This document shows positions 12,211-50,700 of a DNA stretch of 64,000 bases, one piece after another. The translations under genes and the position numbers were made by a program. This DNA is from Actinomycetales bacterium. GTDB taxonomy: Bacteria > Actinomycetota > Actinomycetes > Actinomycetales > Microbacteriaceae. The number at the start of each line of letters is the position of its first letter. The first letter of the stretch is position 1. Location of the stretch: positions 2,531-66,530 of the forward strand of contig JBBSQX010000011.1 in assembly GCA_038243605.1 (NCBI GenBank), in the 5' to 3' direction. The notes below the pieces were generated by a model that ran no database searches, was not told the origin of the DNA, and saw nothing but the letters and a program-made list of their open reading frames with translations.

Positions 12211-14019
12211 TCAGTGCGCCCTATTCGAGGCGAATTCGTCTCCGAAGTCGGGGCCAGCAGACATCTGGTTTGAGCCGCCACCAGGGTCGGCGCGGTGAAT
12301 AAGTCGCTTCATACCCTCGATGTCGTGCGCCTTCTCCATCGCCGCAGCGTGGGTGATTTTTCCCTTGTCCACAAGTTCTGCGAGATGCTGATCCATGGTG
12401 AACATTCCGAGCTCGCGGCCGGCCTGAAGCGCGGTAGGAATCTGGTACGTCTTGCCCTCACGAATGAGGTTGGCAATAGCTGGGGTGATGACCATGACCT
12501 CGGTGGCCACGACGCGGCCTTGGCCACTGGCCCTCTTGACCAGCGTCTGGCACACAACCCCTTGAAGAGTCGCGGCGAGTTGCGCCCTCACCTGATCCTG
12601 TTGGAACGGTGGGAACACGTCGATCACGCGGTCAATGGTCTGTGCCGCATCTTGCGTGTGCAGTGTCGCGAAGACGAGGTGGCCCGTTTCTGCTGCGGTC
12701 AGTGCGACAGAGATGGTCTCGAGGTCACGAAGCTCACCGATGAGGATGACGTCGGGGTCCTGACGCAGTACGTGCTTGAGCGCCTCACCAAAGCTGTGAG
12801 TGTCGGCGCCAACTTCACGCTGGTTGATGAGCGAACGCTTGTTGCCGTGCATGAACTCGATCGGGTCCTCAACCGTGACAATGTGGTCGGTGCGCGTGCG
12901 GTTCACCAAGTCAATGAGCGCGGCAAGCGTTGTCGACTTACCTGAACCCGTTGGCCCGGTGACAAGAACCAAACCTCTGGCCAACTCGGCGAATCTCGCC
13001 ACCGTGTCGGGAACACCCAAGCTTTCGAGCGGCTTAATTTCTGTCGGAATGAGACGGAACGCGCCACCCACCGCATCACGCTGCTGGTAGAAGTTCACCC
13101 GGAATCGGGCACTCTCTGACACAGCAAACGCGAAGTCAAGCTCTAGATCCTTCTCGAACTTTTCGCGCTGCGGCTCGGACAGGATGCTGTAAAGAGCCTT
13201 GGTCACGCGGTCGCGATCCCACACCTGGGAACCGGCCAGCGGAGTGAGCGCACCATCGACGCGAAGCATGGGTGGCGCGTTGGACGTCACGTGAAGGTCA
13301 GAAGCTGTGAGCCTCACCACCTCCTGCAGCGCGTTAATGAGGTCGGGGTCAGCCCCCGGATGCGGGTTGAAACCAGCGTTCACGCGCCCGAGAGGATCAA
13401 GATCCTCAGCCAACGGAGCGCCAACGGGTGGCGCCATTGGCGGAACGGATGGTGTCACGGAAGGGAGCGCCTGTGTCACCGGAGCAGAAGCTGGAGGCGG
13501 CATGGTAGGCGGAGCAGCCGCCATCGGTGCGGTCATGGGTGGAGCCATCGGCGGCGCCATGGTCGACGCGGATGGCATCGTAGGCGGAGTCACCATCGTC
13601 GGAACTGCCATTGTTGGAGCCACCATTGTTGGAGCCACCATCGTCGGAGCGGCCATCGTCGGCGCAGCCATCGGTGCAGCCATCGGTGCAGCCATCGGAG
13701 CAGCCATTGTTGGTGCCGCCATCATCGGAGCCGCAGCCATCGGCGCGTTCCCCGGAGCAGACATGGGCGGCGGCATGGGTGGCAACGGTGCCGACACTGG
13801 TGGCGGTGGCATCTGACCCGCATCATCAAAAGACAGTGATGCCGCAGCTTGAGGCGATGGCGCGCCCGGTGCCGCTGGTGGCGGAGCAGATTGATTTGGC
13901 GTCTGCGCCGGAGGTGGCATCGTCATCCCCGGCGTCGACTGCGGAGCACCCATAGGCGCTGCCGGACGAATTCCTTCGCCCTCCCCAAAGACTGGAATTT
14001 CGTGTACTTGCTTGCTCAT
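12211..14019 (-). CDS. pilT: PilT-type retraction ATPase with a ~200-aa Pro/Ala/Met-rich N-terminal extension
   Basis: Core: DLHVTSNAPPMLRVDG..., Walker A GPTGSGKSTT, VEDPIEF, LRQDPDVILIGE. The ATG at 14019 is preceded by GAGGGGG 6 nt upstream and lies only 31 nt after pilB. Confidence 0.9.
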   Translation of the reverse strand: MSKQVHEIPVFGEGEGIRPAAPMGAPQSTPGMTMPPPAQTPNQSAPPPAAPGAPSPQAAASLSFDDAGQMPPPPVSAPLPPMPPPMSAPGNAPMAAAPMMAAPTMAAPMAAPMAAPMAAPTMAAPTMVAPTMVAPTMAVPTMVTPPTMPSASTMAPPMAPPMTAPMAAAPPTMPPPASAPVTQALPSVTPSVPPMAPPVGAPLAEDLDPLGRVNAGFNPHPGADPDLINALQEVVRLTASDLHVTSNAPPMLRVDGALTPLAGSQVWDRDRVTKALYSILSEPQREKFEKDLELDFAFAVSESARFRVNFYQQRDAVGGAFRLIPTEIKPLESLGVPDTVARFAELARGLVLVTGPTGSGKSTTLAALIDLVNRTRTDHIVTVEDPIEFMHGNKRSLINQREVGADTHSFGEALKHVLRQDPDVILIGELRDLETISVALTAAETGHLVFATLHTQDAAQTIDRVIDVFPPFQQDQVRAQLAATLQGVVCQTLVKRASGQGRVVATEVMVITPAIANLIREGKTYQIPTALQAGRELGMFTMDQHLAELVDKGKITHAAAMEKAHDIEGMKRLIHRADPGGGSNQMSAGPDFGDEFASNRAH

Positions 14020-15721: not shown

Positions 15722-15867
15722 GGAACTTCCCCCTAAAGTTGTTCCCCCAACGACGCGACCATTACCTCGGGTACGAGAAAAGCCATCGCGTCGAATGGCA
15801 AATCTAACTCGTTCGTGTCGTTACACGCCATACCCGCTATCGGGGGGTATAGGGAGCCATGAGCTGG

Positions 15868-16578
15868 CTAAAAGGACCGAAGCACCGCGAAACCGATCGC
15901 CACGAGGCCCACAACGGAGACCACGCAGGCGAGCGCAAATCCGACGACAGCGATGACCCCGAAGCGCCGGGATGACTTTCGAACGGAGGGCACAGCGTCG
16001 GCCGGTGGCCTCGTGATCACCGCGCTCTGTTCCAAACGAGGAGTCGCTTCTGGCTGAACGGGGAGCTCCCGGGGCGCGTAGTTCTCCACCGCACCAGGCC
16101 CGGAAGCAAGGACTGCCTTCTCTGCGAACCCCGCCTCGACCGGAGGCAAGTTGATGCGCTGCCGCCCTCTGGGCCCGCGATTGGATGGCGTCTTGGGCTT
16201 AGCCCTCTTGCCGACCACCACGGTGGCATCGCCATCCGCTGGCTTACGCTTCACAGCCCGTTCGACGACTACGGTTCGTTCACCTTCATCACGGTCCACC
16301 ACGACGGTGCGTTCATTGTCGTCACGGTCAACAACCACAGTGCGATCGCTGTCACCTCGGTCGACGACGACAGTGCGTTCACTGTCGGCATTGCCTCGGT
16401 CGACGACGACAGTGCGGTCACTCTCGGCATTGCCTCGGTCGACGACGACAGTGCGGTCACTCTCACCGCGATCGACCACAACAGTGGCCTCGCTCAAGGA
16501 ATCGTCGTCTTCGCCGGCTCCAGGGCCTGGCTCTGCGGAGTCACCATGTGCGCGGTGTGACGGCTCACCCATGGTCAC
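15868..16578 (-). CDS. Tail-anchored protein carrying eight (D/E)x-TVVV-(D/E)R motifs
   Basis: 236-aa ORF with an acidic N-terminal half carrying TVVV at residues 32, 43, 56, 69, 80, 91, 102 and 119 (hand count). A basic linker follows, then a C-terminal TM (FGVIAVVGFALACVVSVVGLVAIGFAVL). Start overlaps the PP2C stop (16575-16578). Confidence 0.7.
   Translation of the reverse strand: MTMGEPSHRAHGDSAEPGPGAGEDDDSLSEATVVVDRGESDRTVVVDRGNAESDRTVVVDRGNADSERTVVVDRGDSDRTVVVDRDDNERTVVVDRDEGERTVVVERAVKRKPADGDATVVVGKRAKPKTPSNRGPRGRQRINLPPVEAGFAEKAVLASGPGAVENYAPRELPVQPEATPRLEQSAVITRPPADAVPSVRKSSRRFGVIAVVGFALACVVSVVGLVAIGFAVLRSF
16210..16491 (-). repeat. In-frame 33/39-bp tandem repeats encoding the TVVV array
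   Basis: Repeated ...cgatcgaccacaac / cggtcgacgacgacagtgcg... units, with periods of 11, 13, 13, 11, 11, 11 and 17 codons. Confidence 0.8.
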
Positions 16579-17408
16579 AGCTCGACCGTTGCGTCGTTCT
16601 TGCCCGTGTCGTACGCACCATGCGAGAGCAGTCCAGAACCCGTCATGTTGTCACTACTCGGATCGCCCCCACCCGAAATAACATCGATCACGATCACCGA
16701 AATGTTGTCGCGCCCGCCCGCCTCATTGGCGCGTTGCACCAGCGTGGAAGCCACCGACTCTGGGCGGCCACCCATCGTGAGTGTCGCCCGGATGCCTTCA
16801 TCGACGAGTTCAGAAGTGAGCCCATCTGAACAGATGAGAAGACGCTCGCCATTGATCACGGGAACAACCCAACTATCGGCAGTGCTGTCGGCGGCACCAA
16901 TCGCGCGCGTGATCACATTTCGGTCGGGGAAGGTGGCGAGATCTTCTTGCAACATCTCGCCAGCATCCACAAGCTCCTGTCCAAGCGAGTGATCGATAGT
17001 GAGCTGTTCAAGCTCGGTTCCCACGTGGCGGTACACGCGGGAGTCGCCCACATTGAAGATCAGCCAGCACGGTGCACCCTCATGCTCAATGAGAATTGCC
17101 CCGGCCACCGTGCTGCCAGCACCCCGAGTCGTCTCCGCCGCGACAGCCGCAACTTTTGCGTCAGCAGCGACAAGAGCATTTCGGATGCCCAGCAACGTTG
17201 CAAAGCCCTCCACCACCGTGTTCTCCTGGAATGCGGATATCACCGCCGCGCTTGCGCGGTCGCCAGCCTCATAACCGCCCATGCCGTCGGCAACAACGAA
17301 AACCGGAGACTCCACGAGAAAAGAGTCCTCGTTGACTTTGCGCTTGCGGCCGGTGTCACTGAGCCCCGCCACAACGAGTTTTACGCGACCGATGGTGAGT
17401 TCCGTCAT
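16575..17408 (-). CDS. PP2C-family Ser/Thr protein phosphatase
   Basis: GLSDTGRKRKVNEDSF, VADGMGG, ICSDGLT, GGRDNISVIV. 4-nt overlaps on both sides. Confidence 0.92.
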   Translation of the reverse strand: MTELTIGRVKLVVAGLSDTGRKRKVNEDSFLVESPVFVVADGMGGYEAGDRASAAVISAFQENTVVEGFATLLGIRNALVAADAKVAAVAAETTRGAGSTVAGAILIEHEGAPCWLIFNVGDSRVYRHVGTELEQLTIDHSLGQELVDAGEMLQEDLATFPDRNVITRAIGAADSTADSWVVPVINGERLLICSDGLTSELVDEGIRATLTMGGRPESVASTLVQRANEAGGRDNISVIVIDVISGGGDPSSDNMTGSGLLSHGAYDTGKNDATVEL

Positions 17409-19021
17409 GAAGGTCCGTTCTCGAAGGTGAGGCTCAAACTTACGTTCCCGAGGATGAACTGCTCTGACAGCGCTGCCGAACCACCGGCAGGCAACTCGGT
17501 TTCTTTACCGTCGGCCGCGACAAGAATGACACCATTTGTCGACGTGAGGTCGGTGATTGTCCACACCTCATCCTGAAGATCAAGTCGCGCATGGTTCTTC
17601 GACAGCGTGCGCGTCTCATCCGGAACCGCCACCAACTCGACAGAAACATCAGTGGATGTCGGCTTTCTTCCGAGCAACACCGAATTGGACTTCAACGGCA
17701 GAACGACACCGGATTCTGTCACCAGGTTCCATTGCACAAGCGGGCGACGGTCGACTACAACGGTGCGGTCGAGGTCATCATCGTCATCATCATTGTTCAG
17801 GATTCCCGAATGCTGTGAAGGAATGATCGTGGGCATCTCGGCAACATTTGCGCGGGCATCGAAAGATGAGGGCGCCTGCACCTCCGCGGTTCGCATTGTG
17901 GCCGGTGCAGCACCTGCCGACGAACGCGGCGCCCACGGGTTGTCACCGCTGAGCGGGGCTTCTGTGGCAGGAGGTTCTGCACCGAGCGGATCGGCAGCGA
18001 GCGGATCGGCATCACGGGGACCGGCAGCGAGCGGATCGGCAGCGAGCGAGCCCGCATCGCGCGGATCGGCAGCGAGCGGTTCGACACCTACGTGTTCACC
18101 AGCTGGCACCGGCACTGGCACCGGGGGCATGGGTGGCACCGTCAGGGACGGTGCTGCCGCAGGCTCAGCAAACACGGGTTCGGCGGCGGCCGGAGCAAGT
18201 ACCGGTGGCCGCACCACTGCGGGCTGTGGCACATCGAGCGGATCTACAAGCTGGGCAGTGGGCGGCATAGGTGGAGCCGGAGGGGCGGAAGGGGCAGCGA
18301 ACGGCACCTGCTGGAACGGATCCTGCTGCACAGGCGCCTGCTGGAACGGGGCATTCTGCTGCACAGGCGCCTGCTGGAACGGGGCATTCTGCTGCACAGG
18401 CGCCTGCTGGAACGGATCCTGCTGCACAGGCGCCTGCTGGAACGGGGCATTCTGCTGCACAGGCGCCTGCTGGAAGGGGGCATTCTGCTGCACAGCGGCC
18501 GGCGGGAACGGAGACTGTGTCATCGTCAATGCCATTGGAGTTGGCATTGACGTTGGCATTGGCGTTGGCGTTGCCGCCGGCGCAGCCGCCTGGTTCGCTG
18601 GCGTCATCATTCCCTGAATCCGCTCACCATAGTGCTCTGAAGCAGGTGGTGGTGCGGTGCGGGCAAGGAGGGTCGCCCACAGTGGCGGCAACAGGAATCC
18701 GAGAACCACGAGGGCTGTTCCTCGACCAAACCGTTGCCCGATGCGAATCATCGCCATTGCCTTCAAATGCAGGCCATAGAGGCTCACGATCGGCAGGAAG
18801 TAGAGAATGACGGACCAACCGGGAACTCCACCGCGCTCCAGAATGACCATCTCGTTCAGGATGGGGACCCAGCCCTTCCAGCCCTGCTCACCCAGCTTGG
18901 GGAACAGTCGAGAAAGCGCAAAGCAGTACCAAATGTAGAGCCCGAGCGGAACTATCGCCCCGAACACCACGCTTGCCACAATGATGCCAATTCCGAGCGA
19001 ACTTGACGATGAGTCCATCAC
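17405..19021 (-). CDS. Membrane FHA-domain protein (N-terminal DUF5684-like TM module, Q/P-rich repeats, C-terminal FHA)
   Basis: The N-terminal motif ...GWKGWVPILNEMVILERGGVPGW... has flanking TM helices; the family name is from memory. FHA signature: LLGRKP...TLSKNHARL...DLTSTNGVIL. DRTVVVDRR lies directly before the FHA domain. Confidence 0.85.
   Translation of the reverse strand: MMDSSSSSLGIGIIVASVVFGAIVPLGLYIWYCFALSRLFPKLGEQGWKGWVPILNEMVILERGGVPGWSVILYFLPIVSLYGLHLKAMAMIRIGQRFGRGTALVVLGFLLPPLWATLLARTAPPPASEHYGERIQGMMTPANQAAAPAATPTPMPTSMPTPMALTMTQSPFPPAAVQQNAPFQQAPVQQNAPFQQAPVQQDPFQQAPVQQNAPFQQAPVQQNAPFQQAPVQQDPFQQVPFAAPSAPPAPPMPPTAQLVDPLDVPQPAVVRPPVLAPAAAEPVFAEPAAAPSLTVPPMPPVPVPVPAGEHVGVEPLAADPRDAGSLAADPLAAGPRDADPLAADPLGAEPPATEAPLSGDNPWAPRSSAGAAPATMRTAEVQAPSSFDARANVAEMPTIIPSQHSGILNNDDDDDDLDRTVVVDRRPLVQWNLVTESGVVLPLKSNSVLLGRKPTSTDVSVELVAVPDETRTLSKNHARLDLQDEVWTITDLTSTNGVILVAADGKETELPAGGSAALSEQFILGNVSLSLTFENGPS
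18306..18493 (-). repeat. In-frame 30/33-bp tandem repeats (QQNAPFQQAPV / QQDPFQQAPV units)
   Basis: The unit ctgctgcacaggcgcctgctggaacgg(ggcatt/atc) is repeated about 6 times on the plus strand. Confidence 0.8.
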
Positions 19022-21519: not shown

Positions 21520-22880
21520 CGAATCGCCCCCCGCGCCATCAGATGCTTGAGGTCTCCGAGTGCGCCAATTGTCAGGACTGTCATTCCCGACATGGAATTA
21601 ACTCGCGGCTCCGCTCCCGGCACCGTGCGGATGGCCACTGCCGTCACGTTCGCAGGAAGCTGCACAGCGCAGCCCCGAAGGCGGCCGAGTTCCATCGTCG
21701 AACCGGTGACCAGAAAGGCAATCGACATTCCAGGGAACGACTGTGTCGTCAGAGCGGTCACCACGTTGAGTCGAAAGGCCCTCTCGCTGCCCTCCACCGT
21801 TGACATGCTGTCGAGGAGCGTGCGGGCGGTCACCGTTGGCAGGGTCGAGATCGACTGCAACACACTTCGGGTCAGCTCTGGCACCTCTGAACTTGTGGTG
21901 ACAATGACTTCACGGCCATCGCGTACCGCCTGAACGGCCACGGATGCTGCCGCGCTGACCGCCATCTCGAATTCGTCTTCTGAGGCGTACTCGTCGGTGT
22001 TCAAGTCAAGGACCACGGCGAGACTCGCGCGCCTGGTTTCTTCATACTGACGCACCATGAGGGTGCCTGTTTTCGCGGTTGACTTCCAGTGAATATGACG
22101 CTGGGAGTCTCCTGGCGCATACTGACGGATCGCGTGAAACGAGAGATCGCTGTCAACAATGTCGCGCGTTGGCGTTCCCTCCAAATCTTTGATGAGCCCG
22201 GCGCTGGTGCTCGGAATCGCCACAGTGACGGGGTGCACGTAAAGGCGTTCAATCTGTGGCCACGACACCTCACGACGCAAAATACCAATCGGGTCGCCCC
22301 GACCAATGGTCATCGGACCAATGTCGATAACTCCGCGACGGTGAGCCCCAATAGTGAGCTCCTCATGATGCTCTGCGGAGGCGAACAGAAGCGGCACCTG
22401 AACTTCGACGAGCCCTTCACCCACGGGGATGTCAATGACCCCTGGCAGAGAAATACGTGAGGCGCGGTTGGTGACAGAGAGTCGCGCACGCACGTCTGTT
22501 CCGGCAACAACACGGTCTTTCTCGAGGACAAGTTGCACACCGTAGTCGTGCCCGCCCAAAAGGAACGGAATGCTCAGAAGCAGAAGGGTGCCCGCGATCA
22601 CCGCGAGAGCCCACCCTTCAACCCAACCGACCGTAGCGCCAACAACGATGCCGATGACCAGCAGCGCAAGAAAGAGCCACCCAGGCGCGAGCACCGTTTC
22701 TTTGAGCCAACGGCCCGCCGCACCCACTGCTCTTGTCACCGAGCGCGACGTGCGCCGGCCCCAAAACACGCCACCCTCAACGAGACCCGTGCGGGTACTC
22801 GTGTACCTCGTGACTGTCTCCGTGCGGGTGCGGGTCAGGGTACCGGTGCGCGTCAACCGCGACTCGGTGTTTGTTCTCAT
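21516..22880 (-). CDS. DUF58-family protein (VWA-like), membrane anchored
   Basis: FHAIRQYAPGDSQRHIHWKSTAKTGTLMVRQYEETRRASLAVVLD is the DUF58 signature. Two N-terminal TMs and a Thr/Arg-rich N-terminus. Overlaps with moxR and the TGase-like gene. Confidence 0.85.
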   Translation of the reverse strand: MRTNTESRLTRTGTLTRTRTETVTRYTSTRTGLVEGGVFWGRRTSRSVTRAVGAAGRWLKETVLAPGWLFLALLVIGIVVGATVGWVEGWALAVIAGTLLLLSIPFLLGGHDYGVQLVLEKDRVVAGTDVRARLSVTNRASRISLPGVIDIPVGEGLVEVQVPLLFASAEHHEELTIGAHRRGVIDIGPMTIGRGDPIGILRREVSWPQIERLYVHPVTVAIPSTSAGLIKDLEGTPTRDIVDSDLSFHAIRQYAPGDSQRHIHWKSTAKTGTLMVRQYEETRRASLAVVLDLNTDEYASEDEFEMAVSAAASVAVQAVRDGREVIVTTSSEVPELTRSVLQSISTLPTVTARTLLDSMSTVEGSERAFRLNVVTALTTQSFPGMSIAFLVTGSTMELGRLRGCAVQLPANVTAVAIRTVPGAEPRVNSMSGMTVLTIGALGDLKHLMARGAIR

Positions 22881-29800: not shown

Positions 29801-30014
29801 CGATCTCGGCAAGGTCGGTATTGACCCTCGCGTATTGGCCAGCATCTCTCGTGACCCACACGGAAGTTTCGAGCGCAGGAATCTCTTTTGCGTCGTAGCC
29901 TTCCGCAAACACTGCCAGGGTGGCGATGAGCGCGATAACAGCGGCGGCGGCAACGGCTGGGATTACTCGCCGACTGAGTTTCGGCCGCGTTTTTTTCGCA
30001 CTCTTCACGGCCAC
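23877..30014 (-). CDS. Giant (2045 aa) N-terminally anchored surface protein with beta-propeller-like, cadherin/Ig-like and FN3-like repeats
   Basis: Single N-terminal TM (VIPAVAAAAVIALIATLAVFA). Recurrent ...V(A/P)D..TVRAG..V.IPVL.ND.DP.G..L.V.. cadherin-like units. FN3-like units in the C-terminal third. Tail is PPVDPPVDPPVDPPVIPPVVPPVGP. No LPXTG motif. The GTG start overlaps the kinase stop (TAGTG). Confidence 0.85.
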   Translation of the reverse strand: MAVKSAKKTRPKLSRRVIPAVAAAAVIALIATLAVFAEGYDAKEIPALETSVWVTRDAGQYARVNTDLAEIDTVRAVTDPVGVAQSGPDAVVFSSGYRQVWPVNAANPTNLTAAGSPVVPASDPAQGDASKDDKKKDDAADLTGAQNTPVGTREVLSSGNYLVYLTDTGSVFVSTLTTQNGEPPTAFPVDPFASVEVEDGEDRPVYSATAVALSPEGRVLLYSSQEKTVRTFDAERSRFVGDPSAVQNAPKADARLELAVAGDAWVLSSPGDGAVWLPGKKDAIDTGLGGGAKLQPWSRDGRTIHLADQKTLISIALDSGAVTPLATGDGVPAAPAEVDGVVYAAWLNTSGGSLWSSETKKTVTIDVEGKQLDEVQVIVPHFFNNGSRAVLAEKSTGLLWTVPDGRAIPIDQWDLGDDDHEAGTVKVDDLPQQEPPVAVADTFGVRAGRLVSLPVLLNDHDPNKKDVLSVVPDSISAGLSNPAFGQLGLVGNDQTAVVQVKAASGSATFPYTVTDGKAQSAPATVTLTIIPDGTNSAPEWCPVDGCVQVWPTPKIAAGGTAIVPVMDGWLDPEGDPIVLVDVRKVDPNAPVAVVPMSDGSVALRHSDPNAGASIIKLSVVVSDSLGAVTEKELEITVGATSGIKAAPVAVTSSSGQKVTVTIADHVTGGSGAYRVLDAVQASTTGGGLIVVPNAAAGTVDVSATDPGEYTVSYSVQDAVTLSEQSSIIRLTVVPSGSPLTMAPLTAFVRANEDTTVDVLGAVQNTTGRVLLVAGATSSTPALNVNVVAQSRLRVSGSTPDGQPGFIGTATITVSDGGGAVVTGEVSVFLVPSAFGVGPIAVPDSATVRAGTQVDIPVLRNDLSPRGERLVVHPDVQGSDAAGELAFASESSIRYLAPTVPGVYSVSYSVYMEGRPDRVDTAAITVTVIAVGSNRAPEPPVLNARANAGQTVLIPVESFGIDPDGDQVTLTDVQLPKSGKGVPSISPDGSAIIYSAPSGGVPGGQVSFEYTVRDSSGATGSGTVNVGVISSTLLDLTPVTYSDYVQVLKGSPTPVRVQPILNDRDPAQGTLKIVGLRPNAPGDASNPEYARLDALIDPETSLKTGEIVLRAGDTLGTQSFIYTVQSSISTSTAEGLIVVGVAESVAPDMPVVKDTVLTAKDRVQLASGIDVVSGKVRWASGVISGLKLSVWGSAADRYKVSGSQISGDFPSRGDLVPFELTGKDAAGADVTAHGFLRIPAFDDLRVQVKPTEKHIEVAEEKTVDFDVRKLLDIDPSDDIEINPNGAFVVQRGNASCQPVSGTLVRYASGREAPWNDLCAFSVRLKGQKQWSTVAVPIWILPRDPQAILATIARTLAPGETATIDLYDALTTWEGGRVGDKKLLNYAASSSGTAFVMEQKGRSITITARADAAPGTRENVQVAVSNFGGLVGGVSLVVGIAPPDAPRGATLSQQCTVSTSASCSITVIGVGGEYDPFAGKLGGGLKIVGVGTGTSVTCPVATVVLSGEKQVSATWPAGPRPVGGACVVPLTVADAQGRTGPGQLTIDVLGYPQVPASVMTTGYTGTSVTVNVPLGEAAQAHPSVTGVVLYEGSSPASGATCSSSGPASYSCTAPGLVNGAPHTYSARAVNSVGESLDTSQHQTWAYAKPTVSALTATSVFDSRTTDGSGGVDLSITAGADSKSFRVTNVSQDFDRTGPVTVANLTLAPGSNTLIVIPISEFQPPIGGTGSNGVGDQATFTVTAVGSPKYTSAGTATGTPTTVTLTGAGFSANSGSKKSEIFVAWNEDGAEPTCSAEGDVISASGAQFSSPSSTVTVDTEHDYSIKACATNGYGWAESAIAVASSFPSPNQPGGDLTYRVSSSPDSPGSSVQKYKLEKAPAPTPKNKWYLEYNIGGVVTTTFNINDSTNYDAGIFVQYCRTKFWGQKVCSNNPALITPESGSAPTTVTVTFPTGTLTEAQANDPSMVTVSNFASPYATVVPVLDAAAKTVTYTVSFSGGYSMLAAATFVGSYEPDPVIPPDPDPPVDPPVDPPVDPPVIPPVVPPVGP

Positions 30015-31144
30015 TAGATGAGCCCAACCAGTTTCGCCACGACAGCCACAATAGCGACCACAACGAGTGCGACGCCTGCCCCAATTAGGGCTGGTTTCAT
30101 TCCGCCGCCCGAGCGCGCCACCTCGTGCGGCTCGACGGTGCGGCCTTTCACCACGCTCGCGCGTGCTGCCCGACGCGAATTCTTGTTCACCACGGAGATC
30201 ACCGGGCCCCGTGGAGTCGAATCAGTGAGACTGAGTGGCGCCGCAGCAGCCCACTCGGCTTGGGCGACCTCCAGCGGTGTCGGTGAAATTCCAGACTGAT
30301 ACTGGGCCAGCCGCAGTTCCTCGGCAAACGCAAACATCGACTCGAACCGCTTAGTCGGATCTTTCGACATACTCCTGGCAAAAATCGCCTCTACGCCTTG
30401 CGGAACATCTGGGCGCCCAATCGGCGTGTAAGCAGCCTTAGCCACGCGCGCAATGACGTGTGCCGACGAGTTCTTGCTGCGGTCGACATGCTCAAACGGG
30501 CTGTGCCCCGCCAGAAGCGAGTAGAGCGTTGCGCCCAGGCTCCACACCTCAGTGGCAATCGTGCCAGTAGTGGCCTCAGAAAGAACCTCCGGAGAACTCC
30601 ACGGAATCGACATCGCAAAAACTTCATTATCTTCATCGGCGTTGATTGCCGCGGCGATACCAAAGTCAGCCAAAACCGGAGACCCCATCGAGGTGATGAG
30701 AACGTTCGACGGCTTGATGTCCCGATGAAGGAGCCTCGAGCGGTGCGCGGTCTCCAACGCCGCCGCGATACGCACTCCGGCGTCAAGAACGTCGGCAAGA
30801 GAAAGACCCGCGCGCTTCATGCGCGCACTCATCGTGTCTGGGCAATACTCCATGGCCAGATAGGGACGACCGTCTGCTGAAATGGATGCTTGGTAGATAC
30901 TCACGATGGAGGGATGCGCGCTCAGGCGGGCCATGATGTCGGCCTCCGCATTGAAGGTGCGCAAAACCTCCGGGTTAATGGCATCGCTCAGAAGTACCTT
31001 CACCGCGACAACGCGGCGCGGCATGTCTTGCTCATAGAGAAATACGTCAGCAAAGCCGCCCGAGCCCAGCGGACGCACGTACGTGTAACCCGGCAGCACG
31101 GGAGGCGCAGACGGCGCGCGTTTAGCCAAGTTTTGCCCCCTCAA
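30014..31144 (-). CDS. Hanks-type Ser/Thr protein kinase, tail-anchored, no extracellular domain
   Basis: LGSGGFADVF, VAVKVL, HRDIKPSNVL, ADFGIA, WSSPE. The ORF ends right after the C-terminal TM (LIGAGVALVVVAIVAVVAKLVGLI*). The TTG start is uncertain. Confidence 0.93.
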   Translation of the reverse strand: MRGQNLAKRAPSAPPVLPGYTYVRPLGSGGFADVFLYEQDMPRRVVAVKVLLSDAINPEVLRTFNAEADIMARLSAHPSIVSIYQASISADGRPYLAMEYCPDTMSARMKRAGLSLADVLDAGVRIAAALETAHRSRLLHRDIKPSNVLITSMGSPVLADFGIAAAINADEDNEVFAMSIPWSSPEVLSEATTGTIATEVWSLGATLYSLLAGHSPFEHVDRSKNSSAHVIARVAKAAYTPIGRPDVPQGVEAIFARSMSKDPTKRFESMFAFAEELRLAQYQSGISPTPLEVAQAEWAAAAPLSLTDSTPRGPVISVVNKNSRRAARASVVKGRTVEPHEVARSGGGMKPALIGAGVALVVVAIVAVVAKLVGLI

Positions 31145-31213: not shown

Positions 31214-32530
31214 TCACCGATGATATACCGAGTCGTCTAGTCCCACGATCTTTACGAGAGCGCCTTCCCCCAAATCGAGAACATCGCCCCGCTCAAGAAT
31301 GGTTTCCCGCCCATGGTCAAGAAGCCATGATGGTCGACCGGGGGTCATGATGACGGTGCCATTCGTTGAATTCAGGTCGCGGGCCTTCAAGCGCCCACCG
31401 ATCTCCGCGATCTCGAGATGGATGGCGCTGATCTCCCTCATCGGCGACTCCAATGCGATACTCACGATGGACGAGGTGTCGAGCTCAGTGCTCCACGGTC
31501 GGCGACCCAGCACGAGAGGAATATTGGCGGCAAAGGGGTTGCCATCCAAAAGCTGCACACCCAGACGGCCACCAGCGACCTCCGCGGAGAGGTCAATGCG
31601 CGTGGCACCTCGCTCGGCGCGTGATTCTGGCGGGATCTCCTCTGGCGTCACTCGGGCTGGCGTGGCGCGAACAACGCGGGGCACTACCTCTCGCGGCGCC
31701 TGCTCGTGAGGGCGCTTCTCGCTGGGTTCTTCTTTGGTGGGTGCTTCCCCCGCAGACTCGGTCTCAGCGGGCACGGCCTCACTTGGCGCTACCTCGACAG
31801 GCGCCTTCGCGACCGGAGTCTTTTCGACGGGCATCTTTTCGACGGGCGCCTTCGCGTCAGGCATCTTTTCGACGGGCGCCTTCGCGTCAGGCGCCTTCCC
31901 TGCGGGAACGGTCTCGACCGGAGGCTTCGCGCTCGGCGTCTTTTTTCGCGACTTTTTCCCGCGGGGTGCGGCCGAGGACTTCTGAGAAACGACGCGTGGA
32001 TCGCGGGGAAGTTCCATCTGCACAGTTTTTGGTGACGGTTCGTCGATAAAAGCAAGGGCAGGAGCTGGTTCCGTCGACGGGTTCAACGCCACCACTGCCG
32101 CACGAACAACACCGCGGCGAAGCGGTAGCCTCTCGTCATCCAGGGCGTCTGGTGCACCGGTGAGTGACAGAGACAGCGCGGTGACTCCCCTCACCTCGCC
32201 CATCACCCAGGTGGCGCCTGTCGGCCCAGACAGTCGCGTACCGGTCGCGCCGTCGACATCTGCCACAACGTCGCCCTGCACGGCAACCGTCATGCGTCGT
32301 TTGGCGGCATCAAGCACCTCAACGATCGCAAAGTCTGTGAGGGAGTAGTGGGCGATCATTGCCGACAGCGCGCTATTCAGATGCACAGCCTCAGAATCGA
32401 GCGCGGCATAAAGCTCACTGGCTTGGACGGCCGTCGCGGAATGCCCAAGCAAGCAAAGAAAGCGATCCGTGACAATGGCGAAGCCGCCCTGGTCATCGGC
32501 GGACTGAGACAGGTATGCGAACACTTGCAA
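31214..32530 (-). CDS. FHA-domain protein with a Lys/Pro/Ala/Glu-rich repeat linker
   Basis: C-terminal FHA: LVLGRRP...ISAIHLEI...DLNSTNGTVI. The linker holds KAPVEKMPDA repeats. The N-terminal ~150 aa is unassigned. Start is uncertain (TTG 32530 or GTG 32524). Confidence 0.8.
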   Translation of the reverse strand: MQVFAYLSQSADDQGGFAIVTDRFLCLLGHSATAVQASELYAALDSEAVHLNSALSAMIAHYSLTDFAIVEVLDAAKRRMTVAVQGDVVADVDGATGTRLSGPTGATWVMGEVRGVTALSLSLTGAPDALDDERLPLRRGVVRAAVVALNPSTEPAPALAFIDEPSPKTVQMELPRDPRVVSQKSSAAPRGKKSRKKTPSAKPPVETVPAGKAPDAKAPVEKMPDAKAPVEKMPVEKTPVAKAPVEVAPSEAVPAETESAGEAPTKEEPSEKRPHEQAPREVVPRVVRATPARVTPEEIPPESRAERGATRIDLSAEVAGGRLGVQLLDGNPFAANIPLVLGRRPWSTELDTSSIVSIALESPMREISAIHLEIAEIGGRLKARDLNSTNGTVIMTPGRPSWLLDHGRETILERGDVLDLGEGALVKIVGLDDSVYHR

Positions 32531-35500: not shown

Positions 35501-36558
35501 AGTGCGATGCGCAGCATGGTCGGGTTCTCAAGCTCTGCCCATCGCGCCGGAAGCTCGATCACCGTAACGCCGAGCACACCGTCTTCGGTGACAATGGGGT
35601 CACTCAATGGCACTCGTGCGCCATCAACAACAATGATCACGTGCGGCAGCGTCGCGGAGGTGGCCGGCCCAAACCGCGGTCGCTCCTTGATTTCTGCCGG
35701 CAGCAGATCCTCGATCTCGTCGAGCGAGGAGGAGATCATTCTGGCCGGACCGAGCTGGTCGGTGCTCGTGCGCGAGTGGGTGTGTGGCAGCCACTTTGCC
35801 CACTCCCACTGCGACAGCGAGGCGTCATCCGCGGCGATGGCGATCTGCAGGTTCTCTGGGTCGTGCATTGTTGCAGCGTGCAACAGCATGGCGCGAACGA
35901 GCGAACGAACCTCGCGTTCATCCCCCGTCACCTGAACGCGAGCGAAGCCGTTGAGTGGCACCGCAAGGGGGAGGTTCTCTTGCATCTCGTGCGCGATCAT
36001 GAATCGGTGCGCTGCGGATGCCGCCACAGGGTCGAGCTGCGCAAGAGGGGGGAGCTCTGGAGCTTCGAGCGTCACACACAGCGGCTGATCGCTGGTGCCA
36101 ACCCTGCCGAGCAAAAAGTCTGGGTCCCCGGCGGAGCGTTCCCACACCCTGGTGCGTTCCTCTGCGAGGTAGGTGAGCGCTACCGGCGCAGGGTTCGCCC
36201 AGTTGGCGGCCCTGCGCTGCTGCTTGGCGGCAACACGAATGGTCTGACGCAGCTCGGTGAGGTAGGCGAGGTATTCGCGTCTCGCGGCGACCACGGCGGT
36301 TTGGCGCTGCGAGCGTTGCCGCCATCCGTTGACCACGACAAAGCCGAGGGACGACAGCAGAAACATTCCACCAGTGAGTAGCCCGGTGAGGCCCGCATTC
36401 GACATGGTGACCATGACGATGGCGCCGATACTGCCGAGCATAGGGAGCATCGAGCTGAGAAGGTTGCTTCCCCCTTCGCTCGGGGCGAGTTCTGGCGGGG
36501 CCTGCACCGAAATCTTGCCGGAGGGCACGCGTGGGGGCGCGAGGCGGGTTGCTGACAT
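32590..36558 (-). CDS. eccC: Type VII secretion FtsK/SpoIIIE-family ATPase EccC (three P-loop domains)
   Basis: Two N-terminal TMs plus three ATPase domains. The P-loops are GATGSGTSE (D1, atypical), GGPLSGKST (D2) and GDADSGKSS (D3). The D1 Walker B is LLIVADEFSELL. The ATG overlaps the upstream stop (TAATG). Confidence 0.95.
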   Translation of the reverse strand: MSATRLAPPRVPSGKISVQAPPELAPSEGGSNLLSSMLPMLGSIGAIVMVTMSNAGLTGLLTGGMFLLSSLGFVVVNGWRQRSQRQTAVVAARREYLAYLTELRQTIRVAAKQQRRAANWANPAPVALTYLAEERTRVWERSAGDPDFLLGRVGTSDQPLCVTLEAPELPPLAQLDPVAASAAHRFMIAHEMQENLPLAVPLNGFARVQVTGDEREVRSLVRAMLLHAATMHDPENLQIAIAADDASLSQWEWAKWLPHTHSRTSTDQLGPARMISSSLDEIEDLLPAEIKERPRFGPATSATLPHVIIVVDGARVPLSDPIVTEDGVLGVTVIELPARWAELENPTMLRIALSQSPTAKRGAAELITLQAAAVDFTADGISVVEAEATARRLMPLYSSTSTTTSSSGAISGQAELVDLLNLPDVRDIDFDTAWGGRLERDRLRVPIGQDSEGVPIVLDIKESAQQGMGPHGLIIGATGSGTSEVLRTLVLALALTHSPEQLNFVLVDFKGGATFAGMADMPHVSAIITNLGKEIALVDRMQDALQGEMVRRQELLRISGNFANVTDYEKARRGGRTDLAPLPALLIVADEFSELLSAKPDFVETFVNVGRLGRSLQVHLLLSSQRLEEGKLRGLDSHLSYRIGLRTFSAAESRAVLGVPDAYHLPPEPGMGFLKSDTETMTQFRAAYVSGAPKNRARSVAGGVIRDGASSVELFTAAPVRRSEEPEVHADAPVVSSAEPEEKRSTFEIAVERMSGRGPAAHQVWLPPLLTPASLDQLMPDLAVHPQLGLISQSWRNTGALTVPLGIVDIPLEQRRESLTVSLGGAAGHMAIVGGPLSGKSTLARSTMVALSLTCTPLEVQFYVLDFGGGSFSGLQDFPHLSGLATRSEPDVVRRTVAEIIGIVNKREVYFRQQGIDSIETYRQRRAEGTVNDGYGDIFLIIDGWATLRSEFENLEVDVQALAARGLTFGVHVIITASRWLELRANIKDLIGSKIELRLGDAADSEIDRKAAANVAMSMPGRGLAQSKLQMLTALPRIDGSGESSTLANGIDDLIAKVSAGWTGPAGPKLRLLPELITLDELRALAPADTRNILIGIDEAELAPFAIDPRAEPHLYLYGDADSGKSSMLRAYANEIMRLYTPAEAKIFVVDYRRALLGEIPPEYLGAYLTAHELATTGIAELAAFLRGRIPGPDVNSEQLRARSWWTGAEGFILVDDYDLVATSQGNPLAPLAPLLAQAGDLGMHVILTRRAGGASRSAYDPIIQGLTDLGTTGILLSGNPEEGQLIGKVKPRPSVAGRAQIVSRDRGVLSAQLALSPPREG

Positions 36559-37994
36559 TATGCTTTCTCACTCCCGAGAAGGATGCTGACCGTGAACGTT
36601 CGGTCGCCAATGCGCACGCGTACGCCATCGTCAAGCAGAACCCGCTCACCCGGCACTAGCACGACGCTGTCACCGTCTTCGGAGAGCAACTCTGTTCCGT
36701 TGGTGGAGTCGCCATCCGTGAGCCAGGTACGACCGCGGGAATGCTCTAGGCGCAGATGGGTTTTCGAGACGGTCGAGTCTGGGTCCGTCACGACAACAAG
36801 TTTGTCACTTGGTTCGGTTGCCACGGGGTTACGACCGAGGTTCACCGAGACGGGGGCCGCAAACTGCTCACGTTGGCCGGTGTCAAATATCAGCAGCAGG
36901 GTGCCACTCGCGCTGGGAGCCTCGGCCCCACTCGCCGGGATGATGCCCGCGACGAGGCCACTCGACGGCTCCTCGATAATGGGCACCGGAGAGGCGATAA
37001 ACGTCTGGCCACCGGCCGCCGTGTTCGATGTGCTGAGCGAATCTTCGTCGACGACCGAGAATCGGGCGGTCGTACTGATGACGTGCGGCACCAGTGAAGG
37101 AACGGGCGGTGTGAGGTAGTGCATGGCGGCTCCCGGCGGGAGTGCCTCTGGCTGTGACCCCATCGTCACGGCCATCCCCTGCTGCTGCATGTTGCCAATA
37201 TCGCGAGGGAATGCTGCCTTACGTGGAGTGCGAGGTGGAACCGCCACAACAACGGTGAGAGCTGCACGATCTGCCCAGGTTCTGCCCTTGCCCGCGTCAT
37301 CCCAGGCGGAGGAGGCGACGACTATCCACGCGCCCACGGCGGCGACCATGAAGCCGGCGCCCGTAATGAGCCACCGCACGAAGGAGCGCCCAACGCCAGG
37401 AGAGTATGGGGCGTCATGGCGGGCGGTGCGCAATCGGAACAGCGCATTTCCGGGCGTCAGCCCCGTGCGGGCCTCAAGTACCCACATAATGACGAGGGCT
37501 TCTGCGAGCGCGATCAGGCCGTAGACGATACTCGAGGTCGCTAACGTGACAACCAACGCCACGAGCGCCACCGCGATGACGTCGGCCGTGAAAGCTCCGA
37601 GCCTCGCACCGGTACTTGCGACTGTTCCGGCGAATACTGGGTCGAGCGTGGCGGTGCCCCGTGGCGGCCTCTGCACATTCGGTCGAACTGACATCTGGTG
37701 CGGGGTGGCCGGCTGGGGGAACCCTTGTGGCGGGATGCCCATCGGTGCAGAACCCCCGGCATCCGCGCCGACGGCACCGGCACCAGCCAACGCAGGCGCA
37801 ACGAGAAACTGCGCGGGTGAGACCTGCTGGATGGCCCCACACCAAATACAGCTGACGCTGCCGGCCTGAACAACCTGATGACAGTTCCAGCACTGCGCGC
37901 CGGAAGTTGACGGTGCCCCTGAGGACGGTGCCCCTGAGGACGGTGCACCTGAAGACGGCGCACCTGGGGTTGGCGGCAGCGGTGGCAGACTCAT
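36558..37994 (-). CDS. Zinc-ribbon / RDD-family membrane / FHA-domain protein
   Basis: (GAPSS)x3, then CWNC...CIWC. RDD-type TM region ending ...GRTWADRAALTVVV. C-terminal FHA: NLGRNP...TVSKTHLRL...GDSTNGTEL. Overlaps the eccD stop (37991-37994) and the eccC start (36558). Confidence 0.8.
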   Translation of the reverse strand: MSLPPLPPTPGAPSSGAPSSGAPSSGAPSTSGAQCWNCHQVVQAGSVSCIWCGAIQQVSPAQFLVAPALAGAGAVGADAGGSAPMGIPPQGFPQPATPHQMSVRPNVQRPPRGTATLDPVFAGTVASTGARLGAFTADVIAVALVALVVTLATSSIVYGLIALAEALVIMWVLEARTGLTPGNALFRLRTARHDAPYSPGVGRSFVRWLITGAGFMVAAVGAWIVVASSAWDDAGKGRTWADRAALTVVVAVPPRTPRKAAFPRDIGNMQQQGMAVTMGSQPEALPPGAAMHYLTPPVPSLVPHVISTTARFSVVDEDSLSTSNTAAGGQTFIASPVPIIEEPSSGLVAGIIPASGAEAPSASGTLLLIFDTGQREQFAAPVSVNLGRNPVATEPSDKLVVVTDPDSTVSKTHLRLEHSRGRTWLTDGDSTNGTELLSEDGDSVVLVPGERVLLDDGVRVRIGDRTFTVSILLGSEKA

Positions 37995-39376: not shown

Positions 39377-39502
39377 ATTTTACAGTCCCACGACGAGTTA
39401 GCGGATGTCGCCCCGCTGACTCTCAACGAAGCACCGGTCGCAGGCAAAACCTGTCGGGTCAGCACTGATCATCTGCGCTGATCGTCTGTGGCATTGCCGC
39501 TC

Positions 39503-40813: not shown

Positions 40814-40830
40814 GATGCAATTCCTTTCGC

Positions 40831-42144: not shown

Positions 42145-42602
42145 CTTATGCCCGCACCCTTCGGCTGACTCGCAAATTCAGCGGTGGCATTAGACGCCGT
42201 GGCGCCTGTTCCCGCGGTGTCTTTCGCAGTCGAAATCGTTCTCGTTTTCTCTTTCTCGGTCGCCACCGCTATCGCCGTCGGAGTTGCCATCAACGCAATC
42301 TGTGCCAAAAGTTTGGCAGCACCTTCCGAGAGCGACCCATCTGCCTTCACTAGCGCCGTGACAGTTTCGGCGATAGCAACGTGTTGCTGCTGCACGCTGT
42401 CGCTGATTGCGGTTGCGAGTTTGTAAAGATTGCCCTCAAGGGTCCCCAACCGCCAGTAGAAGTCGGACGTCACACCCTCGCTTGTACCGTGTACGGCCCC
42501 AACCCTGCAAGTCAAGCCTCCGCCGCCCGGCAGATACTCTGCGAGCAGCTTGAGCGCGTGCGCAGCTTCATCAAGATCGACGGCGATGACTTTGCCAGCC
42601 AT
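42141..42602 (-). CDS. Small helical protein of unknown function within the T7SS operon
   Basis: 153-aa ORF with an ATG start, coupled to the downstream protease gene. Ala/Thr-rich C-terminus. I can support no family assignment. Confidence 0.55.
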   Translation of the reverse strand: MAGKVIAVDLDEAAHALKLLAEYLPGGGGLTCRVGAVHGTSEGVTSDFYWRLGTLEGNLYKLATAISDSVQQQHVAIAETVTALVKADGSLSEGAAKLLAQIALMATPTAIAVATEKEKTRTISTAKDTAGTGATASNATAEFASQPKGAGIS

Positions 42603-49456: not shown

Positions 49457-50488
49457 CTACTCGGAGCTCACGCTCATACCGACATCGCCAAGCACGAAGC
49501 GACCCTGCACCACAGCAGAGGCGGCCGGCTCAAGATAGTTTTCCGCACCGTCGGCCGCAACGACCATGACGCCGTTCGTGGATTTCAGGTCAGTGATAGT
49601 CCACTGGCCATTCCCAAACGTGAGACGTGCATGCGCCTTCGACAGCGTGCGGGTGGAATCCTCAATCGCAAGCAGCTGCGACGCTGCGTCATCTGATGAT
49701 GGATTGCGGCCCAACTCAACTCGAGTGGCGGTGAGCGCGAAGGCGCGGCCATCGTCGAGCCTGAGGCTCCACAGAACCGGCGACACGGGCTCCACGGGAG
49801 GCACCACCCGAACGTCAACCGCCTGAGGCTCAGCAGCCACGACAGGCACGGCGGGTGACACAGATACTGCGTTTGGTGGCAGTGGCACTGCTGGTTCGTC
49901 GGGTGGGGCAGGCGCGACAGATAAGGCAGGTTGGGCCGGTGCGACAGGGGCCTCTGCGGCGGATATTTGCGCGGGCGCCGATGGTGGTTTCTGAGGAATT
50001 GCGTAGCCAGAGGCATCCGTCACTCTCACTCCCAGAGTGGGTTCCGGTTTCACGCGAGGGCTAGCGACGCGATCCCCCCGCACCGGAGGGCTCGAGGCGA
50101 CACCAGCAGCAACTTGGACATCAGTCGTCACGCGGCCCCAGCCCAAAATAGACGCCCAGATTGGCGGGAACAAAAGCCCAACAACCGTCAGACCCGCACC
50201 GCGCCCGAGCTTACGGTTGATGCGCAGCAATGCGACCGCCTTCAAATACACGCCATACAACTGCAAGACCGGAATGAAGTAGTAAACGACCGACCAACCA
50301 GGGATACCGCCGCGTGTCAGAATCTCGGCCTCGTTCAGAACTGGCACCCAGCCCTTCCACGCCTCGCCACCGATCTTCGGGAACAGCCGAGACAAGGCGA
50401 TCGCGTACCAAACGAAACCAGCCACACCCGCGATGACAGTCAGCACCACGCCAACGACCACTGCTCCCTGCAGTTCGGGCGGCGTCAT
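49457..50488 (-). CDS. Membrane FHA-domain protein, paralog of 17405-19021
   Basis: From the ATG at 50488 (checked): ...AWKGWVPVLNEAEILTRGGIPGW... TM module, a Pro/Ala linker, and FHA (ELGRNP...TLSKAHARL...DLKSTNGVMV). The 64-aa extension in the ORF track is rejected. Confidence 0.85.
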   Translation of the reverse strand: MTPPELQGAVVVGVVLTVIAGVAGFVWYAIALSRLFPKIGGEAWKGWVPVLNEAEILTRGGIPGWSVVYYFIPVLQLYGVYLKAVALLRINRKLGRGAGLTVVGLLFPPIWASILGWGRVTTDVQVAAGVASSPPVRGDRVASPRVKPEPTLGVRVTDASGYAIPQKPPSAPAQISAAEAPVAPAQPALSVAPAPPDEPAVPLPPNAVSVSPAVPVVAAEPQAVDVRVVPPVEPVSPVLWSLRLDDGRAFALTATRVELGRNPSSDDAASQLLAIEDSTRTLSKAHARLTFGNGQWTITDLKSTNGVMVVAADGAENYLEPAASAVVQGRFVLGDVGMSVSSE

Positions 50489-50700
50489 CTCACACATTCC
50501 TTTCGACAGAACAAGGGCACAGCGAATGCACAACGAGTGCGACCGCGGGTGCTGGGCCACAACGGTGCACGGAAGAGGCCAGTGTAATTCTTGCACGGGT
50601 GCGGGAACGGCGGGGGTTCCCTTCGAGAGGGCCCTTGGCCTCCTCAGGAAGCGGCAAGGCGACCGCTGAACCGCCTCCACAGGTGACGGTTAACGCAAAG

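Follow-up and report, generated by a model that had tools for sequence, protein, structure and literature searches.

In the present study, we analysed a 64,000-nucleotide stretch of DNA from an actinobacterium of the family Microbacteriaceae (contig JBBSQX010000011.1, positions 2,531 to 66,530; hereafter the window), and in particular the gene at 15868..16578 on its minus strand, the last of an operon, whose open reading frame (ORF) translates into a small tail-anchored protein with eight copies of the motif (D/E)xTVVV(D/E)R. The sequence data argue, with a probability that we set at about one half, that this array is a multivalent phosphothreonine (pThr) scaffold, which would be written by a Ser/Thr kinase, erased by a PP2C phosphatase and read by FHA domains. 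Five features fit such a role, namely a motif built on Thr only, an aliphatic residue at +3, acidic residues upstream, predicted disorder, and a membrane tether shared with the kinase, along with the constant presence in the locus of a PP2C gene and of a gene for an FHA protein that bears the motif too. FHA pockets are specific for pThr, many actinobacterial FHA domains select an aliphatic residue at +3, and a strict Thr with an aliphatic +3 is what an FHA ligand needs. The specificity for pThr is stated in the work on TssL and Fha (PMC3953482). Phosphorylation, FHA binding, clustering and an effect on the module of MoxR, DUF58 and transglutaminase-like (TGase) proteins or on the secretion system of type VII (T7SS) are what we infer for the array. 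A preliminary description of this DNA had already proposed a phospho-Thr docking scaffold, and the selected Thr motif, the disorder, the co-encoding of PP2C and FHA and the intact FHA pockets speak for that proposal; its further idea of a cis pseudo-ligand on the neighbouring FHA protein is unlikely.

Motif array and its conservation

The array occupies 16204..16491 on the minus strand, in an acidic segment that is predicted to be disordered. Translation gives, in order, EATVVVDRG, DRTVVVDRG twice, ERTVVVDRG, DRTVVVDRD, ERTVVVDRD, ERTVVVERA and DATVVVGKR, all of which fit the pattern [DE][AR]TVVV[DEG][RK]. The motif Thr residues are residues 32, 43, 56, 69, 80, 91, 102 and 119 of the protein, at Thr-to-Thr distances of 11, 13, 13, 11, 11, 11 and 17 residues (minus-strand codons 16483-85, 16450-52, 16411-13 and 16372-74 for copies 1-4; 16339-41, 16306-08, 16273-75 and 16222-24 for copies 5-8), and the acidic N-terminal part of about 125 residues contains 31 Asp/Glu versus 19 Lys/Arg. 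The eight motifs, their spacing of 11-17 residues, the acidic segment and the C-terminal transmembrane (TM) segment, all noted in the preliminary description, were reproduced by this translation.

A homologue search of 5.8 billion proteins (E<=1e-3) gave 125 homologues, the best 120 of which were analysed, and 319 members emerged at the same threshold when 1.84 billion cluster representatives were searched exhaustively with a profile. In the logo of 539 motifs, position 0 was Thr in 100%; it was preceded by Asp or Glu at -3 (56%) and -2 (89%), and followed by Val at +1 (87%), +2 (94%) and +3 (92%), Asp (69%) or Glu (11%) at +4 and Arg at +5 (98%). Among the family representatives, +3 was V/I/L in 87% and +4 was acidic in only 45%, which makes it the least conserved core position, and the frequency of Arg at +5 was 97-98%. 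When the sites were anchored solely on the hydrophobic triplet-x-R, Thr was still found at position 0 in 531 of 538, and the lone Ser lay outside the repeats. The anchor [DE]xT....[RK] was counted 466 times in 124 representatives, versus 8 with Ser in place of Thr, at a background in these regions of 5.9% Ser and 8.0% Thr. The spacers between the motifs showed no conservation among homologues, and the copy number was 1-11 in the homologues, most often 4, and 0-12 in the representatives. Divergent subclades carry arrays of D-H-T-R-V-V-x-R, of E-R-T-R-V-A, or of E-H-T-V-I-V-A without the Arg, so that the constant core is an acidic -2, Thr, and an aliphatic residue at +2 and usually at +3.

At the DNA level, Tandem Repeats Finder detected units of 33 nt and 39 nt in the array. 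Copies 2-4 are near-identical (39-nt unit, 97% matches), which points to a recent triplication, and the remaining copies encode the same amino acids by different synonymous Val, Thr and Arg codons. Because the synonymous codons differ and the motif is kept in more than 100 homologues with divergent spacers, the array is not a fresh duplication. These comparisons of sequence support the view that strong selection has kept a short linear motif centred on Thr. A 176-residue ORF on the opposite strand (16151-16681, plus strand; STTTVRS repeats) overlaps the array; it is not a gene and arises artefactually from the repeat in GC-rich DNA.

The members of the family that were listed (150 of 319) were all small, at 80-388 residues, and 123 of the 124 new representatives have a hydrophobic C-terminal tail. 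Among the best 120 of the 125 homologues, all those with names belong to Microbacteriaceae (Leifsonia, Agromyces, Microbacterium, Salinibacterium, Cryobacterium and Pseudolysinimonas), and no family of Pfam, NCBIfam or PADLOC matched the array protein. The array family, which belongs to soil Microbacteriaceae, is unannotated, well defined, specific to this bacterial family and taxonomically narrow.

Predicted structure and membrane anchoring

In the AlphaFold2 model of the array protein, made with a 22-sequence family alignment, the array (residues 1-125) had a confidence score (pLDDT) of 38-49 and no secondary structure, and a C-terminal helix (residues 199-233) was predicted at pLDDT 81-97. 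On this model, the array is best seen as an accessible, disordered string of motifs tethered at the cytoplasmic face of the membrane. A folded beta-repeat or beta-solenoid was also considered and was ruled out by the lack of strands and a pLDDT below 50 across the array. The TM anchor lies at 15880..15963 on the minus strand (hydrophobic residues 206-233), with about three residues beyond it. Since positive charges precede this segment and a signal peptide is absent, a cytoplasmic orientation of the N-terminal part (N-in topology) is supported.

Between the array and the anchor there is a basic and Pro-rich middle module of about 70 residues (residues 137-205; 15964..16170, minus strand; RGRQRINLPPVE...GPGAVENYAPRE...PSVRKSSRR), which was absent from the preliminary description. 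It forms conserved alignment columns across the homologues, with a pLDDT of 58-82, and its consensus RGRxR..PPV..GPGAVxxYxPR...LPSVxRxSRR is modelled by AlphaFold2 with moderate confidence. This module is probably a second binding element, with PP2C or the kinase perhaps as its partner.

Kinase, phosphatase and FHA proteins

The gene before the array gene encodes a PP2C (Stp1/IreP-like) Ser/Thr phosphatase (16575..17408, minus strand; Pfam PP2C_2). It matched NCBIfam Stp1_PP2C at 1.1e-53, under the curated cut-off, and its sequence holds the metal-binding Asp motifs; the phosphatase is soluble, unlike the membrane-anchored kinase and array protein. The array protein has 236 residues when read from a GTG at 16578, which overlaps the PP2C stop as GTGA, and 234 residues from an ATG at 16572, which lies 6 nt further on and 2 nt past that stop; public gene calls take the ATG start (the 234-residue P0001). 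The two genes are tightly, that is translationally, coupled, as both possible starts adjoin the PP2C stop. The 4-nt coupling claimed in the preliminary description is seen in the GTGA overlap, and the ATG start gives tight coupling as well.

The window was compared with eight related loci from Leifsonia, Microbacterium, Agromyces, Conyzicola and four metagenomic contigs. The order of TGase, DUF5684-FHA, PP2C and array was found in 9/9 loci, and the junction of PP2C and array in the eight related loci varied from an 8-nt overlap to a 9-nt gap. TGase and DUF58 stand upstream in the same order in 8/8 of these loci, and where the flank reaches far enough, MoxR and the big Ig-like protein (two loci, L001 and L002) or MoxR (L014) is also present. 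Arrays next to PP2C and FHA genes had been proposed in the preliminary description as a check of its idea, and this co-encoding was seen in all nine loci.

The candidate writer is a tail-anchored Ser/Thr kinase at 30014..31144 on the minus strand, which has no extracellular domain and whose sequence contains VAVK, HRDIKPSN, DFG and a C-terminal TM. A kinase had been recognised there from the sequence alone, and the Pfam match (Pkinase, 2.9e-42) agrees with it. The activation segment of this kinase (DFGIAAAINADEDNEVFAMSIPWSSPE) has no Thr, and an acidic DEDNE stands where PknB-type kinases hold the regulatory Thr; on its sequence, the kinase might be active constitutively or controlled by other means.

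The second protein with the motif is a DUF5684-FHA membrane protein (17405..19021, minus strand; Pfam DUF5684 and FHA). A single DRTVVVDRR, which the preliminary description had placed ahead of the FHA domain of the upstream gene, was located at 17744..17770 on the minus strand (residues 418-426), with its Thr 10 residues before FHA strand 1. Elsewhere in the 64 kb, a search in six frames found no [DE]xTVVV[DE]R beyond the array gene and this gene. A homologue search with the motif-plus-FHA segment returned 34 fragments, other FHA families and Bifidobacterium lying beyond its reach. In 30/30 aligned homologues the motif T-V-V-V-D-R-R-P is kept at a fixed distance, with the Thr standing 11 positions ahead of the strand-1 Trp and 29 ahead of the GR loop. 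No homologue departs from T, V(+2) or V(+3), and D, R and P are nearly invariant. The motif was also present on the partner in six further loci (L013-L018).

In the AlphaFold2 model, the C-terminal 144 residues of this partner form a confident FHA sandwich (pLDDT >90), and the motif, at intermediate confidence, is not predicted as a strand. Foldseek matched the FHA model to the FHA domains of ArnA, OdhI, GarA, FhaA, DgcB and MDC1, with PDB 3uot, 3unn, 6hc1 and 6hc0 among the structural matches; a sequence search of the same segment against PDB gave no match at E<=0.01. A second DUF5684-FHA paralogue is encoded outside the operon, next to rpoC (49457..50680, minus strand), and has VDVRVVPPVEP in place of the motif, which makes it a natural control. 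Because this paralogue keeps the FHA signature without the motif, the partner motif is an operon-tied add-on and not part of the FHA fold. The idea that it is an integral FHA strand was ruled out, as it is not predicted as a strand and is absent from the paralogue.

Two further FHA proteins are candidate readers, an FHA protein of 438 residues (FHA438; 31214..32530, minus strand; Pfam FHA), which stands between the kinase and EccC and keeps GR, SxxH and STNG, and an RDD-FHA membrane protein (36558..37994, minus strand; Pfam RDD and FHA), in which the pThr-binding residues are also kept. Taken over all four FHA domains of the window (17405-19021, 31214-32530, 36558-37994 and 49457-50680), a number that had been given earlier and was found again here, GR, SxxH and TNG are retained, and the pocket residues of the partner are invariant across 28 homologues.

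The linker of DUF5684-FHA contains a Gln/Pro-rich tandem repeat, QQNAPFQQAPV (18299-18490, minus strand; DNA periods of 33, 63 and 96 nt), and an (A/L)ADP(L/R) repeat comes next in the gene at about 17979-18083. Such a low-complexity linker might favour condensation.

Proposed mechanism and alternative explanations

In the proposed mechanism, each motif Thr would be phosphorylated by the membrane-anchored kinase of the same gene string (30014-31144) and, once phosphorylated, would be reset by the coupled PP2C. The writer and the substrate would share one membrane face, because the kinase is itself tail-anchored. The pThr would then be the ligand of a canonical FHA domain. That of DUF5684-FHA, encoded two genes upstream, is the first candidate, and FHA438 and RDD-FHA of the adjoining T7SS cluster are further ones. 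In this scheme DUF5684-FHA would be reader and ligand at once, by its FHA domain and via its own copy of the motif. On paper, the array offers 8 sites, the partner 1 site and 1 FHA domain, and there are 3 further FHA proteins. Since the array is multivalent at the membrane and DUF5684-FHA would be both reader and ligand, phosphorylation would cross-link the array and the FHA proteins into membrane-proximal clusters, which PP2C would dissolve; a reader-and-ligand protein together with an eight-valent ligand is a recipe for a phosphorylation-dependent network.

The single motif of the partner would act in trans, by FHA-to-FHA linking or dimerisation. The preliminary description had instead regarded it as an auto-inhibitory pseudo-ligand in cis, which is unlikely with a Thr fixed 10 residues before strand 1 in 30 homologues. 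In the FHA sandwich, the chain ends lie opposite the pThr pocket and the peptide-binding loops. Cis binding is improbable because of this topology and because only 10 residues separate the Thr from strand 1, a linker much shorter than that of GarA/OdhI. From the known FHA topology and the fixed distance, a role in trans is more likely for the partner motif than that of a cis pseudo-ligand.

Several observations weigh against the scaffold as proposed. Some seemingly full-length members of the family have only 1-2 copies, so a high valency is not essential, and the copy number of 0-12 suggests that no particular valency is required, by which the proposal is weakened. The preliminary description had counted a freely varying motif number against its own idea; the number does vary, and we read this as normal for multivalent arrays. 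One subclade has Ala at +3 (ERTRVAxA), and others have Arg at +1 or have lost +5. The conservation is also wider than pThr and +3 require (Val at +1 87%, Val at +2 94%, Arg at +5 98%). Since the acidic -2, Val +2 and Arg +5 are kept so widely, a reader other than or besides FHA is likely; the sequence pattern suggests that this second reader is most simply the kinase or PP2C, with the kinase as the obvious candidate, or that strand pairing takes its place. Beta-strands, too, favour Thr over Ser, so that the argument from Thr over Ser is not exclusive to phospho-recognition. Furthermore, no covariation was seen between the array variant and the partner motif, D-H-T-R-V-V arrays standing beside TVVVDRRP partners, a result that neither helps nor refutes the pThr-FHA reading. 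Finally, 'TVVVDR' was found in no searchable paper, and 'TVVV' together with FHA gave chance co-occurrences only.

A different use of the same phosphorylation would be a substrate sink or pseudo-substrate, in which the array buffers or times the kinase and/or PP2C, or tethers PP2C to the membrane, and no FHA domain reads it. The tight PP2C coupling kept in all loci would be expected of such a protein, the acidic upstream residues with Arg at +5 resemble a specificity determinant of a kinase or phosphatase more than one of an FHA domain, and a soluble PP2C would be brought to a membrane-anchored kinase and array. Against this, the sink leaves unexplained why the identical motif stands on the FHA protein of the operon but not on its paralogue, and it gives no reason for the use of Thr only. 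PP2C enzymes and Hanks kinases accept Ser. We therefore consider the sink unlikely, though it keeps some weight beside the scaffold.

Strand pairing independent of phosphorylation has been given somewhat less credit. Here the TVVV segments, with charged gatekeepers, would pair mutually or with an edge strand of a partner in a cross-beta-like clustering, and phosphorylation of the Thr, if any, would turn the pairing off rather than make a docking site. TVVV is strongly beta-prone, and all three Val are kept at 87-94%, above what pThr and +3 need. A homotypic contact would account for one motif on two proteins, and on the FHA protein the motif stands in a fixed register beside strand 1. Yet AlphaFold2 shows a strand neither in the array (at low confidence) nor on the FHA-adjacent motif, and the FHA fold signature is unchanged in the paralogue that lacks the motif. 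A hydrophobic zipper is further weakened by arrays in which +1 is Arg, Thr or Glu, or +3 is Ala, and pairing leaves the strict Thr and the PP2C coupling unexplained.

It is quite improbable that the array is a ligand for another component of the operon, for example with the acidic +4 at the metal site of the vWA-like DUF58, or by recognition through MoxR or the TGase-like protein. The array always stands beside DUF58 and TGase, and beside MoxR where the flank reaches, and D/E occupies +4 in 80% of the motifs. However, among the core positions +4 is conserved least (acidic in 45% of representatives, against 100% for Thr and 97-98% for Arg at +5), a transglutaminase would find neither Gln nor Lys in the motif, and the copy on the FHA protein gets no reason. 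The weakest explanation, a neutral low-complexity expansion of a DNA tandem repeat without specific function, could draw on the 33-nt and 39-nt units with one block at 97% identity and on the copy number of 0-12, but is effectively refuted by the conservation data, in which the motif is kept in 319 clusters despite divergent spacers, the copies differ by synonymous codons, and a single copy is kept at a fixed position in a different gene.

Other features of the locus

All genes from 42144 down to 15868 lie on the minus strand. Their order is mycosin-like S8 protease, Gly-rich protein, polytopic membrane protein, RDD-FHA, EccC-like FtsK ATPase, FHA438 and kinase, followed by a Big_9/cadherin-like protein of 2045 residues (23877-30014), MoxR AAA+ (22877-23842), DUF58 (21516-22880), a TGase-like membrane protein (19018-21519), all four on the minus strand, and then DUF5684-FHA, PP2C and the array protein. 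Downstream of the array gene there is a terminator-like hairpin followed by a T-run (15782..15799, minus strand), identified only by its match to the consensus; shuffles of that region yield 0.7 such sites. The array gene is taken as the last of its operon because this hairpin and then the start of pilB come after it. The type IV pilus genes follow the operon, and EccD, EccB, further mycosins and the second DUF5684-FHA are found further on. The sequencing runs that contain the region are DNA runs only, from a soil metagenome.

An ESX-like T7SS cluster extends over 32590-49406, with an EccC-like ATPase, EccB, EccD with a YukD domain and three mycosin-like S8 proteases, together with a second, polytopic EccD-like protein without Pfam match (37991-39376) and a Gly-rich protein of 443 residues (39503-40834). 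The FHA proteins are interleaved among the genes of this cluster. T7SS genes (mycosin, EccB, EccD and WXG100) come directly after the array in three of the eight related loci. In Microbacterium esteraromaticum (L002, 10728-20558), two more Big_9/cadherin/fn3 proteins of about 2000 residues come after the array gene, so that the large Ig-like protein of the operon has tandem paralogues there. On the pilus side of the window, the PilT-like ATPase (12211-14019, minus strand) has an N-terminal Pro/Ala/Met extension of about 200 residues (APTMAAPMAAP...), which is unusual for PilT. A reading of the locus as a defence system was rejected, as the library matches were a generic kinase and a weak PP2C only.

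A genome-wide scan with the DNA pattern DR...TVVV[DE]R...TVVV[DE]R, which was too strict, found 10 loci only. Its matches outside Microbacteriaceae (Acidimicrobiaceae, Sandaracinaceae, a cyanobacterium, Streptomyces and M. aurantiacum) were treated as unrelated; that of Sandaracinaceae is a Pro-rich protein, the cyanobacterial one a perfect 7-residue repeat and that of M. aurantiacum off-frame. In the 8-kb stretches round the Acidimicrobiaceae and Streptomyces matches, no FHA, PP2C or kinase gene was found. The Acidimicrobiaceae match, from a metagenome-assembled genome (L005, 3090-3863, plus strand), is a tail-anchored protein with two PRTVVVDR copies, possibly by convergence or chance.

Significance and comparison with known systems

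To our knowledge, bacterial pThr-FHA signalling is mostly a matter of one site and one reader (GarA, TssL, FhaA-MviN), and Rv1747, with two sites, is the only multivalent case that has been studied. The recruitment of FHA proteins by a multi-site pThr array is known in eukaryotes and is rudimentary in Rv1747; what would be new, if borne out, is a tail-anchored protein without domains that serves only as an array and is encoded in a bacterial operon. We suggest only tentatively, as a doubtful extension of the scaffold, that this is the first dedicated bacterial pThr array scaffold, with up to a dozen sites, which toggles membrane FHA proteins between dispersed and clustered states and so gates the T7SS and/or the MoxR-DUF58-TGase envelope module. 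If this is true, a string of identical sites that can be tuned would provide a simple and genetically tractable model of phosphorylation-controlled clustering at the membrane. It would also offer a first mechanistic handle on the widespread operons of Ser/Thr protein kinase, MoxR, DUF58, TGase, PP2C and FHA (PFNA-type operons), and a handle on the kinase, phosphatase and FHA genes of many T7SS clusters. If the scaffold is wrong, a well-defined and unannotated motif-array family of Microbacteriaceae remains.

Among the known systems, the SDT repeats of MDC1 are bound by the FHA domain of NBS1 (PMC2315670). As in the array, a disordered acidic region has several Thr-centred motifs, and the phosphorylated copies recruit an FHA protein multivalently (PMC2315670, PMC2315671, PMC2442910). 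The XRCC1/XRCC4 clusters read by the FHA domains of PNKP, APTX and APLF are a related eukaryotic case. MDC1 is a large, eukaryotic and nuclear scaffold protein, and its sites are written by CK2 as pS-D-pT-D with an acidic +3; in contrast, the array protein is bacterial, tail-anchored, small and dedicated, with aliphatic residues at +1 to +3, and its phosphorylation is putative.

Closer in lineage, Rv1747 of M. tuberculosis is an actinobacterial membrane protein that clusters by multivalent pThr-FHA contacts under the kinase PknF and the PP2C PstP (PMC9312465, PMC8339232), and its pThr/FHA condensates are made by PknF and reversed by PstP (PMC9312465). The regulatory module of Rv1747 consists of two FHA domains and a disordered linker with pT152 and pT210, so readers and ligands are on one polypeptide, with two sites and no repeat motif. 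In the array system, a protein of its own supplies the ligand, at 1-12 near-identical sites, and the reader protein combines a single site with a single FHA domain.

The PpkA/PppA/Fha pathway of the secretion system of type VI (T6SS) likewise has a kinase, a PP2C and an FHA protein in a secretion cluster, and an N-terminal cytoplasmic Thr of a membrane-anchored protein as the dock, pT14 of TssL being bound by Fha in the Agrobacterium T6SS (PMC3953482). Fha condensates have also been reported for the T6SS (bioRxiv 10.1101/2023.12.21.572528). That pathway is Gram-negative and uses a single site on a core structural component, which has no sequence homology to the array protein, whereas the array is a multi-site accessory protein in the context of an ESX-like T7SS and the MoxR-DUF58-TGase module.

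With regard to the partner, GarA and OdhI are also actinobacterial FHA proteins with a phosphorylatable Thr N-terminal to their own FHA domain, and the FHA model matches both structures. Their Thr stands about 30 residues or more before the FHA domain and folds back in cis. The 10 residues to strand 1 found here, in contrast to that long linker, are probably too short for a reach in cis. Direct precedents for binding in trans are MDC1 pT4 (PMC3351156) and the N-terminal tail of Bdellovibrio DgcB (PDB 6hc1), in which another subunit's FHA domain binds a Thr that lies shortly before the FHA domain, a contact that stabilises dimers or oligomers. Their motifs are different and they have no partner array protein; for DUF5684-FHA, we infer a similar binding in trans.

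At the level of the gene cluster, several T7SS variants have been described as including genes for a kinase, a PPM phosphatase and an FHA protein (PMC11217815). TseK of the T7SSe (Garrett and Palmer 2024) resembles the array protein by description as a small protein of a T7SS cluster that has one TM helix and a short cytoplasmic part without structure, with kinase, PPM and FHA genes nearby (PMC11217815), but it belongs to Bacillota and no motif array has been described for it. The gene content is also that of the PFNA operon of Bifidobacterium, pkb2-fn3-aaa-atp-duf58-tgm-prpC-hypothetical-fha (PMC8430577), which by Pfam has the same components as here, namely a Ser/Thr protein kinase, a large Ig/FN3-like protein, MoxR, DUF58, TGase, PP2C, a small hypothetical protein and FHA. 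The order is prpC, hypothetical and fha in the PFNA operon, whereas FHA, PP2C and then the array as the last gene are found in the window, and the array is likened by position only to the seventh, post-prpC gene (BLGT_RS02790), the function of which was stated to be unknown by the authors (PMC8430577). If the array is indeed a scaffold of the kind proposed here, it could give a function to this seventh gene of PFNA-type operons.

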